64,000 bases of DNA from assembly GCA_964465205.1 (NCBI GenBank), contig CAYXJO010000001.1, forward strand, positions 5,099 to 69,098. Direction: 5' to 3'. Positions 41,556 through 47,681 of this stretch are shown here, one piece after another; the first letter of the stretch is position 1, and each line of letters begins with the position of its first letter. Source of the DNA: an uncultured Gammaproteobacteria bacterium (GTDB lineage: Bacteria; Patescibacteriota; Patescibacteriia; Magasanikbacterales; GWA2-37-8). The position numbers were made by a program, and so were the translations under genes. Under the pieces are notes generated by a model. That model made no database searches. It was not told the origin of the DNA and worked only from the letters and a program-made list of their open reading frames with translations.

Positions 41556-41738
41556 ATATAGTTGTTGTCGAAAATTTTCGACAAGATTAGATATTTTTTT
41601 GGCTAAAATTAGGTTAATTTAGGTTGTGTGGATAAAAAGTGGCCAAAATTAGCACGATATTACCTGAATTTAGTTATTATAGTATCAGAAATAAAGCTCG
41701 TTGACAACCACTAAACAAACACTAACCGGAGGTGGACC

Positions 41739-42791
41739 ATGCAACCTGTCTATGTGTATCCCGGCAGCTTTTCTCCGCCTACCTATGGGCACTTCTACAT
41801 TGTGGCGCAGGCGGCCGCTATTTTCCCTACCGTGCATATTGTCTGTTCGACCAATGCCCGCAAAACTAACTGGTTCTCCGAAAGCGAATGTGTGGAGCTC
41901 TGGCGCGCCTACCAATTGCCCGCCAATGTGCAAGTGCATACCTTTTCGCAGTTCGTAAACGATTATCCCAATACCAAGGATATCGTGATGATTCGCGGGG
42001 CGCGTAACGAGACCGACCTCGACGATGAGAAGAAAGTGCTTATGCTCAACTGGACCAAATTCGGAATCGACAAGTTTTTCTACATTATGTCGAGTCCGGA
42101 ATTGTGTTCGGTGTCGTCCTCGCATGCGCGCGCGGCGGCCCAGAATCTGGATCTACAGACATTGGCGCACAATGTAGCGCCGATGGTCGTGTCGGCCCTG
42201 CTAGAAAAAGTGCTGAAAGCACGCAACGTGTTTATGGTAGTGGGGCAGCCGGGCAGTGGCAAGAGTACTTTTCTGCGCATGCTATCCGAGTGCGATTGCC
42301 GCAACGTACATGTGAATACCGACGAGTTCAACCACGAATTGCGCCCGTACTTGGAGAGCATGTTTCCTGGCCAAGATTTGGTGGATGTGGCTGCGCACGA
42401 CGAAGTTGCGCTCAAGGCCGCTATTGCCAAGCCGTGGTTTGAACTGCTCGCCCAAGCATTGCGTAGTGCGCCAGCCGACAGTAATGTGTTCGTGGAAATC
42501 CCGTACGGCCTACAAGCAGACAAACTGATGTTCCGCTTCGTGGGTGGAAAGGTGATCTATGTCGGCTGCGACAATCCGCAAGAGAATGAGCGGCGCGTGG
42601 TAGAACGTGGCACTCCCAAATTGGTGGCGTTCATCGATCGTATACCAGGATGGGAAGAGACCGATGCCATCGCACGTCAGTATGGATTACAGTTAACACG
42701 TATCCAAACTGGTGGCGATATTGAACATACCGCGCAAGCGGCACAAAAATTTGCTCAGGAGGTGGCGCATGAAACGTACATTGGAAAATAG
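41739..42791 (+). CDS. Bifunctional nucleotidyltransferase (HxGH, NMNAT/PPAT-like) + P-loop kinase fusion; NadR/NadM-like candidate
   Basis: N-terminal YPGSFSPPTYGH (GxFxPxHxGH nucleotidyltransferase motif). C-terminal half carries Walker A VVGQPGSGKST. GC-rich. RBS GGAGGTG. Confidence 0.5.
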   Translation: MQPVYVYPGSFSPPTYGHFYIVAQAAAIFPTVHIVCSTNARKTNWFSESECVELWRAYQLPANVQVHTFSQFVNDYPNTKDIVMIRGARNETDLDDEKKVLMLNWTKFGIDKFFYIMSSPELCSVSSSHARAAAQNLDLQTLAHNVAPMVVSALLEKVLKARNVFMVVGQPGSGKSTFLRMLSECDCRNVHVNTDEFNHELRPYLESMFPGQDLVDVAAHDEVALKAAIAKPWFELLAQALRSAPADSNVFVEIPYGLQADKLMFRFVGGKVIYVGCDNPQENERRVVERGTPKLVAFIDRIPGWEETDAIARQYGLQLTRIQTGGDIEHTAQAAQKFAQEVAHETYIGK

Positions 42792-43410
42792 GTGGTTGGC
42801 ACTGGGCGAACAACTGAATCCGCCAGCCGACCAAACGACGATGTCGCGATGGTGGCATAAACTGACCGCGGCATACGGCGAACCTCATCGTCATTACCAT
42901 ACCTTGGATCATGTTTCCGCTTGTCTCACGGAACTGGATCAGCTGGATCGTGCTTTTGCGGTACCACAAGCGGCAGAATTCGCCTTGTGGTTCCATGATG
43001 CAGTGTACGTCATCGGCGCCGCGGACAACGAAATGCGCAGTGCCGATCTAGCCGAACAGTGTGCGCGCGAACTGGGGTTGGGTGATGGGTTCGTCGCTTT
43101 GGTGCGCGACTACATCATGATTACCAGTTACCAAAATCCACCCGACAATAGTCCGGATTCGGCCTACAAAATTGCTGACATCGATCTGGCGATTTTGGGT
43201 CAGGATGCTGCCGTATTCGATCGCTACGAAGAGGGGATCCGGGCGGAATATGCGCAGTATCCCGAGGCGCAATACAAATCCGGTCGAGCACTATTTCTGG
43301 TGAGGATGCTCGCCCAAGCGCCTATTTACCACACACCGGAATTCCAAGATCGCTACGAAGCGCAAGCTCGTGCCAACCTTACGCGTTTGATCGCGCGTTT
43401 GCTGGCCTAG
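42769..43410 (+). CDS. HD-superfamily-like hypothetical protein
   Basis: His/Asp motifs HRHYHTLDH and WFHDAVY. Overlaps the upstream gene by 23 nt. GC-rich. Confidence 0.45.
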   Translation: MKRTLENRWLALGEQLNPPADQTTMSRWWHKLTAAYGEPHRHYHTLDHVSACLTELDQLDRAFAVPQAAEFALWFHDAVYVIGAADNEMRSADLAEQCARELGLGDGFVALVRDYIMITSYQNPPDNSPDSAYKIADIDLAILGQDAAVFDRYEEGIRAEYAQYPEAQYKSGRALFLVRMLAQAPIYHTPEFQDRYEAQARANLTRLIARLLA

Positions 43411-43540
43411 CTCATCTACATCATTCATTGGGAGCAACAATTGTTGCTCCTTTTTTTGTCGCGCATATCCTTGACAAATTGAGTGGTTTGTGGAATAATA
43501 ATCAGTCATTGGTTTTTCGTAAAACGGAAAGGAGGCCCCA

Positions 43541-44266
43541 GTGGCACAGCGTGAGTTCTTTGAATTTGACATCGACGGGACTTTCTTTCGGGAAAGTCTG
43601 TTACTCAAGTTAATTGATCGCCTGGTGGAAGTAGGAGTCTTCCCCGGCTGGGTTAAGCAGGAATTCGAAATCGAGTACAACGGCTGGATGAGCCGCAAAG
43701 CTGGCTACAACCATTTTATCGACGCGGTGGTGGAGACCTATCGCCATCACGTCAAAGGCGTGTCGCAAAAAGTGGTGCAAGCCGCGGCGCGTCATGCCGT
43801 GCAAGAGTGCTACGGTATGGTGTATGCCTATACACGCACCAAACTCGAAACCGCTCGTGCTGAAGGTAAGTTCCTGCTGGCACTTTCGCATTCACCCAAA
43901 GAAGTGGTGGTCGAATTTTGCCGGATGTGGAACATTGATTACTGCGCCGGTACCGAGTACCTGGTGGACGAGAATGGGTGTTACACCGGCGAGGCCAGGA
44001 CCTACAACAAGGCCGAGAAGTTGCAAGAGGTCGTGACCGCATATGATCTGACCTATAGCAATTCGATCGGCATGGGCGACACCAGCGCCGACATTCCCAT
44101 CTTTGAGATCGTCGAAACGCCGATCTGTTTCAACCCTCCGACCGCCTTGGCCGAATTAGCCGAACAGCGTGGGTGGTTGTGGGTAGACGAGCGAAAAAAT
44201 AAGGCTGTCCTGCACTTGCGGGGCACCTACACGATTCTCGATGTATCACCGGTTGCCGGGCCTTAG
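43541..44266 (+). CDS. HAD-IB family phosphatase (phosphoserine phosphatase-like)
   Basis: Motif I FEFDIDGTF and motif IV SIGMGDTSADIP. GC-rich. Confidence 0.65.
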   Translation: MAQREFFEFDIDGTFFRESLLLKLIDRLVEVGVFPGWVKQEFEIEYNGWMSRKAGYNHFIDAVVETYRHHVKGVSQKVVQAAARHAVQECYGMVYAYTRTKLETARAEGKFLLALSHSPKEVVVEFCRMWNIDYCAGTEYLVDENGCYTGEARTYNKAEKLQEVVTAYDLTYSNSIGMGDTSADIPIFEIVETPICFNPPTALAELAEQRGWLWVDERKNKAVLHLRGTYTILDVSPVAGP

Positions 44267-46341: not shown

Positions 46342-46924
46342 ACCAGTAGTTTGCTTTGATTTGTGGAATACGCTTATTGCCACATCCAATCCGCGCAGTT
46401 ACACAGATATTTTGGTGGACGCCGGTTTTGACGCGGCCGAAATTTTTCAATTTGTACGTGATTATATGATGGTGCGTCCGTTTACTTATGATGAGTTGTT
46501 TAAAATTTTATTAAAAAGATTTTGGGTCGATACCAAATTAGGCAAAGAAATTGAGAGCGCCTGGCGTCGGGACAATGAAACCGCGCAATGGATTCCAGGC
46601 GCCCTGTCTAAACTCAAAAAACTATCCAGAGTCTCTTCGTTGGTGCTGATTTCGAATGTGAGCAGTGCCGGCTGGGAGGTTGTGGATAGACGTTTGAAAA
46701 TTGGCGAAAAATTCGATCGTCTGTTTTTGTCCTTTGAACAACGCGTAAACAAACCACAAGAGGAGGTGTGGCAAAAAGTAGAGCAGTGGTATGGCGATAT
46801 GCCTGCCAATCAATTCGTGATGGTGGGGGATAGCGTGGCCGATGACTTGACCGTGCCCAAAAAGCGCGGTTGGCAAACATACTTGGCTGGAAACACACGC
46901 CGGTGTGTATTCCAAAAACAGTAA
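46334..46924 (+). CDS. HAD-superfamily hydrolase
   Basis: Motif I VVCFDLWNTL and motif IV MVGDSVADD. Confidence 0.65.
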   Translation: MSRPVVCFDLWNTLIATSNPRSYTDILVDAGFDAAEIFQFVRDYMMVRPFTYDELFKILLKRFWVDTKLGKEIESAWRRDNETAQWIPGALSKLKKLSRVSSLVLISNVSSAGWEVVDRRLKIGEKFDRLFLSFEQRVNKPQEEVWQKVEQWYGDMPANQFVMVGDSVADDLTVPKKRGWQTYLAGNTRRCVFQKQ

Positions 46925-46949
46925 CCGCTTAGCCGAAAAGGAGTACCAA

Positions 46950-47588
46950 ATGAGCGGGACAAACGAAAAGGTTCTGATTCTGGATGTGCCCGGGAAAGAA
47001 GGTTTGCGTAGCGAACTGGAATCCTATGGCCTCATCGTGACCGAGGGTGCAGAAATGACGCGTGCCATTCTGGCTTGGCCAGACTGGTCGCAGCTCGACC
47101 CCAAGACCACCATGCTGATCTTTCCGGGTAATGGCGCTTCAATTGTGAAGGGCTATATCCCGGATAAATGGTTTGACCAGTGGTTACACGTGTATCGAGT
47201 TTACGCCAAAAGGTATTGGACACCTGGTAGTCCGCCCAGCGTGGTGGCGAGTCGGGTGTTCCCGGACCGCATGGTGCTGGGAGCAAAGGATATTGTAGTG
47301 GTCGACGATGTCGTGTCGTCGGGTACTACTGCCCACATGCTCCACTATGCCAATGCGGCGTGGATCCCAGGTGCCCGGTGGCATCTGGTAACTTGGATCG
47401 GGCAATTGTCTGCTAAGTGCAAAAAGTACGAGCAGGTATATGCCGCGAACTGGTACGGTACCAAAGACACCAAAGCGCCGATTAATTCTCTAAGCACTCT
47501 CATCGAGGTGCCAGAGATTGCCGAAAATTACGCCAAGCGTCAATTGGGTGATGCGGCCGGGCGATTTTTGGAAATGTTGGCGCGGTGA
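46950..47588 (+). CDS. Type I phosphoribosyltransferase-domain protein
   Basis: PRPP-binding motif IVVVDDVVSSGTTAHML. GC-rich. Start taken at the internal ATG (MSGTNEKV). Confidence 0.55.
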   Translation: MSGTNEKVLILDVPGKEGLRSELESYGLIVTEGAEMTRAILAWPDWSQLDPKTTMLIFPGNGASIVKGYIPDKWFDQWLHVYRVYAKRYWTPGSPPSVVASRVFPDRMVLGAKDIVVVDDVVSSGTTAHMLHYANAAWIPGARWHLVTWIGQLSAKCKKYEQVYAANWYGTKDTKAPINSLSTLIEVPEIAENYAKRQLGDAAGRFLEMLAR

Positions 47589-47681
47589 TTTTTGTAAATT
47601 CCGTACGGACGCTCATCAAACGATGGGCGTCGTTTTGCTTGGAAAAATTTTGAAAATATTTTGGGAAATAAAAAAGGGAGT

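Follow-up and report, generated by a model that had tools for sequence, protein, structure and literature searches.

The eukaryotic coenzyme A (CoA) synthase COASY combines phosphopantetheine adenylyltransferase (PPAT) and dephospho-CoA kinase (DPCK) in one protein, and its PPAT domain is of the archaeal/eukaryotic type, which is only distantly related to bacterial CoaD. Meanwhile, genome-reduced mycoplasmas retain only PPAT and/or DPCK, and some of them possess HAD-DPCK fusions (PMC8721197). No description of a prokaryotic CoaD-CoaE fusion, nor of CoA metabolism in the candidate phyla radiation (CPR), was found in the literature searched. The DNA analysed here (hereafter the window) comprises 64,000 nucleotides of contig CAYXJO010000001.1 (positions 5,099 to 69,098) and represents chromosomal DNA of the Patescibacteria/CPR type, encoding GyrA, FtsH, ThrRS and tRNAs. 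A two-domain protein encoded in an eight-gene block of this window is, judging by profile searches and a structure model, probably a divergent bacterial PPAT-DPCK fusion that makes CoA (“CoA synthase-like”) rather than a relative of NadR. Close homologues of the proteins of the block were found nearly exclusively in metagenome-assembled genomes (MAGs) of Patescibacteria.

An earlier note, made from the sequence alone, had likened the fusion to a NadR-type nicotinamide mononucleotide adenylyltransferase (NMNAT) joined to a ribosylnicotinamide kinase, which would feed nicotinamide riboside into the NAD pathway encoded downstream. Such an enzyme would have the same architecture, i.e. a HIGH-superfamily nucleotidyltransferase followed by a P-loop kinase, and the neighbourhood suits it as well, since the gene lies less than 5 kb from a NAD-salvage island and in several CPR lineages its module neighbours nrtR or NAD-salvage operons with NrtR boxes. 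The N-terminal half of the protein, however, is by its sequence clearly of the bacterial CoaD (PPAT) type. The best curated model was TIGR01510 (CoaD; NCBIfam, 84.1 bits, E = 1e-23), as opposed to ∼16–17 bits for the NadD/NMNAT models TIGR00482 and PRK00071, and all of the top 34 matches of a single-sequence PDB search were PPATs. A profile of 34 family members retrieved PPATs from PDB at ∼1e-23, NadD at 5e-6 and NadR (8x7f) only at 7e-3. The PPAT residues found by mutagenesis and crystallography to be critical for the binding of ATP and of the 4'-phosphate of phosphopantetheine are Pro8, Thr10, His18, Lys42, Arg88, Arg91, Ser128/129 and Arg133 (PMC12784347). Each of them has its counterpart in the family (P8, S/T10, H18, K42, R86, R89, S126, S127 and R131; invariant or at least 90% conserved among the 34 members), and F11, T15, G17 and G87 are likewise invariant or nearly so. 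In addition, the nucleotidyltransferase motif is the invariant TxGH of PPAT and not HxGH.

The identity of the C-terminal half was resolved only by structure prediction and an exhaustive search of protein representatives, as the Pfam and NCBIfam matches of this domain were to generic P-loop families (AAA_33, Zeta_toxin and others), all of them below the cutoffs. An AlphaFold (AF2) model calculated from the family alignment reached a pLDDT of 94. When the kinase domain of this model was submitted to Foldseek, the top two matches, as well as those with the best TM-scores (0.64–0.69), were DPCKs, and the predicted structure agrees with the three-domain fold of these enzymes. In the ranking of structural neighbours the nicotinamide riboside kinase NRK1 came 28th and NadR 54th, and neither was within the Foldseek top 50. 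A profile search of 1.84 billion representatives delineated a sharply bounded family of ∼90 representatives, in which the kinase domain nearly always stands behind a PPAT-like domain. The weak full-length matches of the same profile include bona fide CoaE proteins, three of which (P0381, P0385 and P0394) were retrieved end to end with E-values of 2e-5 to 1e-4 (1.84e9 sequences), and also CoaD+CoaE fusions. One of these fusions, P0370, passes both equivalog cutoffs (CoaD, 152.9 > 103.3; CoaE, 73.4 > 65.55), while another, P0386, passes the CoaE cutoff and has a CoaD score of 101.1; hhalign aligned the family with P0386 co-linearly across both domains (probability 99.3%, E = 4e-20). In the joint alignment, K175 (P-loop Lys), D195 (Asp of the (D/N)xD motif) and R286 and R290 (lid RxxxR) line up with the CoaE motifs. 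The Lys, the Asp and the lid Arg of these motifs correspond to Lys14, Asp32 and Arg140, the critical residues of CoaE of Mycobacterium tuberculosis (PMC3019153).

NadR identity was thus rejected by the NCBIfam and PDB profile searches and by two fold-search methods, the protein having profiled as PPAT plus dephospho-CoA kinase, and the nicotinamide-riboside entry point expected of it falls away for the same reason. Since, in addition, the downstream island already encodes an NMNAT-NAD kinase fusion and no NrtR box precedes the fusion gene in the window or in its relatives, a NadR-type function appears highly improbable.

The fusion gene belongs to a recurrent module, in which a gene for a TrmB-family regulator on the minus strand is followed on the plus strand by a PPAT gene with or without the DPCK part and then by a gene for either a DUF3307 or a COG4339 protein. 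The module was found in ∼45 species representatives of Falkow-, Magasanik-, Morani-, Nealson-, Komeili-, Buchanan- and Vogelbacteria and CPR2, and tblastn searches and hidden Markov model maps showed that 40 of the 50 loci compared (L001–L050) have a TrmB homologue upstream of the PPAT-like gene and in divergent orientation. TrmB of the window shares 77% identity with its orthologue in the related locus L001. The variants include a PPAT domain alone (L041–L047) and a PPAT-like domain fused directly to COG4339 (L048), and P0149, which is not a member of the PPAT-DPCK family, joins COG4339 to a bona fide CoaD (165 bits). The bacterial-type PPAT-DPCK fusion is also carried by one DPANN MAG (Aenigmatarchaeota, JAGLPV010000032.1; L040, 10001–10948), where it shows 34% identity and is not accompanied by TrmB; this may reflect a CPR-DPANN transfer or a binning error.

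Both alternative third genes of the module code for large uncharacterised families, for whose function nothing relevant was found in the literature searched. COG4339 has more than 1300 homologues and no Pfam model, and even the family profile gave no sequence match in Pfam, NCBIfam or PDB. Its gene most likely starts with the ATG at 42769, which overlaps the end of the fusion gene by 23 nt, so that the two genes appear to be translationally coupled. DUF3307 proteins are ∼130 aa long and contain hydrophobic segments and the conserved His/Asp motifs GHLxGDYLLQ, SHxPxD and VVDNTxH; they look more like small membrane metallohydrolases than transporters. DUF3307 and COG4339 occurred together in no locus examined, and DUF3307 may be a membrane-bound analogue of COG4339.

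Several observations weigh against CoA synthesis as the function of the fusion. The CoaD score of its PPAT domain is below the equivalog cutoff (84.1 versus 103.3 bits), and the Asp of the TFDP motif is replaced by Cys or Ser in the family. The kinase domain of the window protein matches neither Pfam CoaE (PF01121) nor NCBIfam TIGR00152, and its best PDB profile matches are polynucleotide-kinase-like P-loop proteins. The family is also oddly sparse for a housekeeping CoA enzyme, with ∼110 clusters, ∼90 representatives among 1.84 billion proteins and ∼45 among 185,579 species representatives, a distribution which fits an accessory or specialised role. Finally, nrtR accompanies the COG4339 type of the module in 5 of 11 loci and the DUF3307 type in none of 28 (Fisher p = 8e-4), an association left unexplained by a purely CoA-related role. 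Together with the strong divergence of the DPCK domain, the sharp boundary and patchiness of the family and its dedicated TrmB regulator, these points would be accommodated by a CoaD-CoaE descendant of changed function, which adenylylates and then 3'-phosphorylates another phosphorylated metabolite in an accessory pathway, possibly tied to ADP-ribose/NAD signalling, COG4339 or DUF3307 then being the corresponding hydrolase. Such a change of function nevertheless seems unlikely, given that every PPAT residue contacting the 4'-phosphate of phosphopantetheine or ATP and the catalytic Lys, Asp and Arg of DPCK are conserved, that intermediates with canonical CoaD and CoaE scores exist, and that a fully canonical CoaD, not belonging to the family, is likewise found joined to COG4339. 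Two consecutive steps of one pathway on a single polypeptide remain the simplest reading. The confidence in the CoA assignment is limited by the sub-threshold scores, the sparse distribution and a view restricted to the window.

If the protein is a PPAT-DPCK fusion, it would convert 4'-phosphopantetheine and two ATP first to dephospho-CoA and then to CoA, i.e. perform the last two steps of CoA synthesis, and a two-step enzyme of this kind would suit an organism which scavenges the precursor 4'-phosphopantetheine. The unit composed of the fusion and COG4339 genes (unit 1, 41739–43410) would be expressed from the promoter region shared with the divergent TrmB-type regulator. The COG4339 partner may act as a compact metal-dependent, phosphodiesterase-like HD enzyme hydrolysing a CoA-related phosphodiester, in order either to supply or recycle 4'-phosphopantetheine or to clear a damaged intermediate. 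Domain identities, folds, residue conservation and synteny, like the composition statistics given below, were observed directly, and the substrates, the direction of the COG4339 reaction and the TrmB control are inferred. As a rather speculative extension, the module could be a three-component system for CoA recycling, in which 4'-phosphopantetheine bound through a phosphodiester, for instance in holo-carrier proteins or conjugates of CoA origin acquired from the host, is set free by COG4339 or, in other lineages, DUF3307 and is converted directly to CoA by the fusion. If that were true, a first function would be provided for two large uncharacterised families, the CoA acquisition of CPR symbionts would be defined, and the NrtR-controlled neighbourhood would point to coordinated salvage of adenine-nucleotide cofactors.

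Downstream of the block, the minus strand carries the NAD island with genes for NadE, a radical-SAM protein, PncB, an uncharacterised protein, the NMNAT-NAD kinase fusion and PncA; genes for a kinase, a PP2C phosphatase and NrtR come next. The radical-SAM gene between nadE and pncB (49743–50696, minus strand) has no obvious role in the Preiss-Handler pathway. In agreement with the connection to the NAD region suggested by the earlier note, nrtR or NrtR-box operons were found beside the fusion/COG4339 module in five other locus groups representing at least four lineages. The nrtR gene itself adjoins the TrmB-PPAT-COG4339 module in L001, L017, L029, L047 and L049, and in L047 a single block runs from NMNAT-NADK through kinase, PP2C and NrtR to TrmB, PPAT and COG4339. 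As several lineages have this arrangement, the proximity of the CoA module to NAD-salvage genes must be old and recurrent. Palindromes of the form GTGTA-N5-TACAC flank nrtR of the window (62261–62947) at 62104–62118, 62226–62240 and 62953–62967 and, among the related loci, were present only in the five that encode NrtR; in this CPR group the palindrome probably serves as the operator for NrtR. Regulation of the fusion gene by NrtR was rejected, because the boxes of the window are located only around nrtR and those of the relatives are outside the TrmB-PPAT spacer, and the control of the CoA module appears to be separate from that of NAD salvage.

Some further features of these NAD regions deserve mention. 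In L029 (Moraniibacteriota, CP175956.1; 12046–14351), COG4339 and two NrtR boxes are followed by genes for PncA-like, NMNAT-like and PRK/uridine-kinase-family proteins, the last of which is a candidate for the nicotinamide-riboside kinase that had been sought in the fusion. At the end of the NAD island of the window, an unknown gene coding for 255 aa (55507–56274) is a partial paralogue of an unknown gene coding for 616 aa (57445–59295). Repeated DNA segments of 79 nt and 55 nt also occur, with a constant distance of 3030 nt between the copies, and neither protein has a significant Pfam domain. The block made up of the 616-aa protein, a 288-aa protein, the kinase, PP2C and NrtR is conserved in L001 and L047.

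The region as a whole may be described as a chromosomal cofactor- and nucleotide-salvage neighbourhood of a Patescibacteria bacterium with four transcription units (Table 1). All eight open reading frames (ORFs) of the block were recovered where the earlier note had placed them, and its domain calls (a cytidylyltransferase-fold domain with a P-loop kinase, HD-like, HAD-IB, GNAT, YerC-like, nucleoside phosphorylase and HAD hydrolase) proved correct. The HAD-IB phosphatase and the GNAT acetyltransferase would constitute the monocistronic units 2 and 3, each gene having its own terminator. Between 40 and 48 kb, no riboswitch or other structured RNA scored above the threshold.

Table 1. Features of the TrmB-PPAT-DPCK region of the window and examples of DUF3307 genes from other loci (GC, GC content; GC3, GC content at third codon positions).
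Feature	Coordinates	Strand	GC / GC3	Evidence and remarks
tRNA-Glu(UUC)	40660..40732	-		left neighbour of the module; ARAGORN; Rfam tRNA 63.9 bits
TrmB-family transcriptional regulator	40797..41555	-	native GC / 0.44	Pfam TrmB E = 2.4e-11
Divergent promoter region, AT-rich	41556..41738	.	0.32 /	sequence reading
Probable PPAT (CoaD-like, residues 1 to ∼150) + dephospho-CoA kinase (CoaE-like, ∼160–350) fusion, 350 aa	41739..42791	+	0.528 / 0.615	
COG4339-family HD-superfamily protein, class I phosphodiesterase-like fold	42769..43410	+	0.542 / 0.565	overlaps the fusion gene
Terminator-like hairpin closing the fusion-COG4339 unit	43430..43451	+		9-bp stem, then T-run
Best sigma-70-like promoter match of the region, upstream of HAD-IB	43471..43499	+		11/12, extended -10; consensus scan only
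HAD-IB family phosphatase	43541..44266	+	0.539 / 0.661	Pfam HAD E = 1.5e-10; TIGR01490 87 bits, cutoff 98.3
HAD-IB terminator	44255..44274			
GNAT terminator	44372..44347	-		
GNAT acetyltransferase	44392..44883	-	0.585 / 0.689	Pfam Acetyltransf_1 E = 1.6e-8; convergent with HAD-IB
YerC/YecD TrpR-like regulator, first cassette gene	45143..45460	+	0.472 / 0.538	Trp_repressor E = 1.2e-23; TIGR02531 63.7 bits > 42.2 cutoff
PNP_UDP_1 nucleoside phosphorylase	45538..46341	+	0.468 / 0.440	PF01048 107.5 bits
HAD-IA hydrolase, nucleotidase-like	46334..46924	+	0.452 / 0.482	Pfam Hydrolase, HAD_2; 8-nt overlap with phosphorylase stop
Phosphoribosyltransferase (PRTase)-like protein, last cassette gene	46950..47588	+	0.540 / 0.615	PRPP-loop motif DDVxSSGxT
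Terminator-like hairpin after the PRTase-like gene	47608..47631			
DUF3307 genes (examples)	L004 9045..9440; L005 9016..9411; L006 9044..9460			

The promoter region of the fusion gene contains the promoter-like 16-mer TTTTGGCTAAAATTAG at 41597–41612, and a second, similar copy is found ∼45 nt downstream. Across the window this motif occurs 9 times with up to 3 mismatches, as compared with 1.0 expected, its copies (14060, 19487, 22242, 30151, 30176, 41597, 56410/56416 and 63435) being mostly located just 5' of genes. Upstream of the NAD island two copies are arranged as a palindrome, and the motif probably represents a native promoter element. The exact match of 16 nt between 41597 and 56416 could be taken for a specific operator shared by the fusion promoter and the NAD island, but this was rejected because the motif is a general one.

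The last four genes of the block form a conserved cassette (unit 4, 45143–47588), which would consist of a repressor, a uridine/purine-type phosphorylase, a nucleotidase-like hydrolase and a transferase-like protein dependent on phosphoribosyl pyrophosphate (PRPP), and which may serve the interconversion of nucleotides, nucleosides and bases. A metagenome search with the phosphorylase gave 80 loci; the phosphorylase gene is preceded by YerC in 38 of these and accompanied by HAD-IA in 21 and by the PRTase-like gene in 19. The genes are co-linear in 19–21 loci, mostly in the order of the window and always on one strand, and no NAD genes were found near the cassette loci. Because of this conserved co-linearity, the GC-rich PRTase-like gene and the AT-rich trio preceding it can be regarded as one operon. 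The membership of the phosphorylase in the PNP_UDP_1 family is certain from its sequence, and it appears closest to uridine phosphorylase (TIGR01718, 190.8 bits, cutoff 280.3), the DeoD models scoring lower, while HAD-IA gave weak matches to YjjG/pyrimidine 5'-nucleotidase. The PRTase-like family has 45 detectable homologues, mostly unannotated, the named ones being from Patescibacteria. The earlier assignment of this protein to type I PRTases stands as far as the PRPP-loop motif is concerned: DDVxSSGxT shows no variation among 25 family members, and in alignments it falls on the PRPP loops of PDB PRTases. However, the PDB matches cover the PRPP-loop region only (best profile E = 0.066), and no whole-domain PRTase match was obtained, Pfam PRTase_2 scoring 17.9 bits against a cutoff of 28.8 and NCBIfam giving no match, so that the call is based on the motif alone.

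The impression that GC-rich genes alternate with AT-rich ones in the block is supported by computed values. Against a background of 35 upstream ORFs (1–41.6 kb; median GC3 0.455, interquartile range 0.426–0.470), the five genes flagged as GC-rich, i.e. those for the fusion, COG4339, HAD-IB, GNAT and the PRTase-like protein, have GC3 values of 0.57–0.69, above all background ORFs but one (Mann-Whitney p = 4.6e-4; robust z 3.2–6.9). The genes for YerC, the phosphorylase and HAD-IA, described as AT-rich, do not differ from the background (p = 0.33). However, the GC content of fourfold-degenerate sites is alike in YerC (0.625), HAD-IA (0.633) and the PRTase-like gene (0.645), and only the phosphorylase is low (0.538); hence, the contrast inside the YerC operon is weaker than the raw GC implies. 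Furthermore, every intergenic spacer inside the block has a GC content of 0.31–0.42, the elevation being confined to coding sequence. The strongest compositional outlier of the window by far is a gene for an SPFH/Band 7 domain protein (9803–11674, minus strand; GC 0.63, GC3 0.91), which adjoins the tRNA-Arg and tRNA-Lys genes at 12082–12338.

GC3 heterogeneity inside conserved operons persists across Patescibacteria, both in the cassette loci (L087–L118) and in those of the TrmB-PPAT-DPCK module (L004–L049). In 36 other loci the GC3 of the fusion gene exceeds that of TrmB by 0.06 on average and by up to 0.22 (+0.18 in the window). In practically all of 19 loci, GC3 is higher in the PRTase-like gene than in the phosphorylase (difference: mean +0.16, minimum -0.002). 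At fourfold sites of 16 de-duplicated loci this offset amounts to +0.095 and is positive in 12 (Wilcoxon p = 0.002), the value of the window (+0.107) being typical. As the loci compared share only 34–66% protein identity and their synonymous sites are saturated, the offset is not a relic of a single transfer. The offsets reflect either maintained, gene-specific equilibria or recurrent replacement by related CPR genes, and the raised GC of the fusion, COG4339 and PRTase-like genes would accordingly be a family-associated property or the trace of an old exchange within CPR rather than of recent stepwise import.

The earlier note had interpreted the mosaic as repeated acquisition of salvage enzymes into one locus, and each GC-rich stretch might indeed be a separate and fairly recent horizontal acquisition into a native AT-rich hotspot. 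The five genes are strong GC3 outliers, and the relative L001, whose orthologues show 61–84% protein identity (fusion, 74%), retains TrmB, fusion and COG4339, but there HU and RNase Y come immediately after COG4339, and the 43.5–56.3 kb stretch of the window is missing between COG4339 and HU. The block of the 288-aa and 616-aa proteins, kinase, PP2C and NrtR is located on the other side in L001, and the block order differs among the window, L001 and L047. Between NrtR and TrmB, L001 carries GC-rich genes (6936–8601, GC3 0.65–0.68) for an inosine-uridine nucleoside hydrolase-like and a nucleoside 2-deoxyribosyltransferase-like protein; since the window has no such genes at that place, the neighbourhood is variable between relatives. 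Finally, no homologues of HAD-IB and GNAT were found in 166 related loci.

For the remaining GC-rich genes, the evidence points in the opposite direction. The synteny of TrmB and the fusion is phylum-wide, and in L001 the fusion and COG4339 genes are GC3-elevated as well (0.51 versus ∼0.37). Their fourfold-site identity to L001 (0.43–0.46) equals that of the native TrmB, NrtR and HU genes (0.38–0.41; random, ∼0.27), and hence they appear to be as old as their native neighbours. The PRTase-like gene is integral to an operon with AT-rich genes and shows its GC offset in essentially all loci of that operon, while the native motif resembling a promoter is present in the AT-rich spacers of the block. 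Among the window proteins scanned there was no integrase or transposase domain, and no convincing flanking direct or inverted repeats were found. The tRNA-Glu was considered as an island integration site and rejected: the same tRNA adjoins TrmB in the distant locus L005, so the adjacency represents conserved synteny and not an integration scar. Of the usual marks of a genomic island, the block thus displays atypical composition and lacks mobility signatures, whereas absence from relatives or younger age applies to HAD-IB and GNAT and not to the fusion, COG4339 or PRTase-like genes. Stepwise recent acquisition of all the GC-rich stretches is therefore doubtful; it is plausible for HAD-IB and GNAT only, which as lineage-specific genes are the best candidates for real acquisitions.

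The mosaic could also be an assembly or binning chimera of a GC-rich and an AT-rich organism, as the sequence is MAG-derived and its GC steps are abrupt. However, the steps fall at gene boundaries and the spacers are AT-rich. In addition, the junctions from COG4339 through HAD-IB, GNAT and YerC to the phosphorylase are identical in L167, a Logan assembly of run SRR11845629, which is possibly not independent of the data of the window and gives the same 163-aa GNAT gene call, and the same kind of mosaic with orthologous genes is seen in L001 and two further contigs. Since the junctions are reproduced and the mosaic recurs, a chimera is scarcely credible.

Patescibacteria lack most biosynthetic pathways, and their cofactor supply is poorly understood. 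If the function proposed here is true, CoA would be obtained from scavenged 4'-phosphopantetheine alone by means of one regulated polypeptide. Annotation pipelines miss the fusion, which is named a generic adenylyltransferase/cytidyltransferase by NCBI and PPAT only by JGI. As for COG4339, which is often mislabelled “NMDA receptor subunit”, the fusion and the neighbourhood provide a first functional context. A caution also follows for the scanning of CPR genomes, where GC-rich genes cannot be read as recent imports, since such offsets are found in phylum-wide conserved operons.

Compared with the described systems, the fusion of the window differs from eukaryotic COASY in that its PPAT domain is of the bacterial CoaD type, and hence it must have arisen independently and be convergent with COASY. 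With bacterial CoaD and CoaE it shares the catalytic and substrate-phosphate residues as well as fold and profile relations. These enzymes are, however, normally encoded by separate genes, while in the window a single gene encodes both. Its product falls short of the equivalog cutoff for CoaD, TFDP is changed to TF(C/S)P, divergence of the CoaE part puts it beyond the reach of Pfam and NCBIfam, and the gene is part of a TrmB-associated module with COG4339 or DUF3307. The similarity to NadR is limited to the order of the domain classes and the NAD-salvage neighbourhood; both domains belong to other families by sequence and fold, and the N-terminal HTH domain is absent. COG4339, in turn, is much smaller (213 aa) than the class I 3',5'-cyclic-nucleotide phosphodiesterases (∼300–340 aa) and has no detectable sequence similarity to them, and its genomic association is with PPAT, not with cyclase genes. 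The reduced CoA pathways of mycoplasmas are alike in belonging to host-dependent, genome-reduced organisms, in retaining the terminal CoA steps only and in having DPCK fused to another domain (PMC8721197), whereas in the window the partner of DPCK is PPAT and not HAD, the phylum is a different one, and a regulator and a phosphodiesterase-like partner are added.

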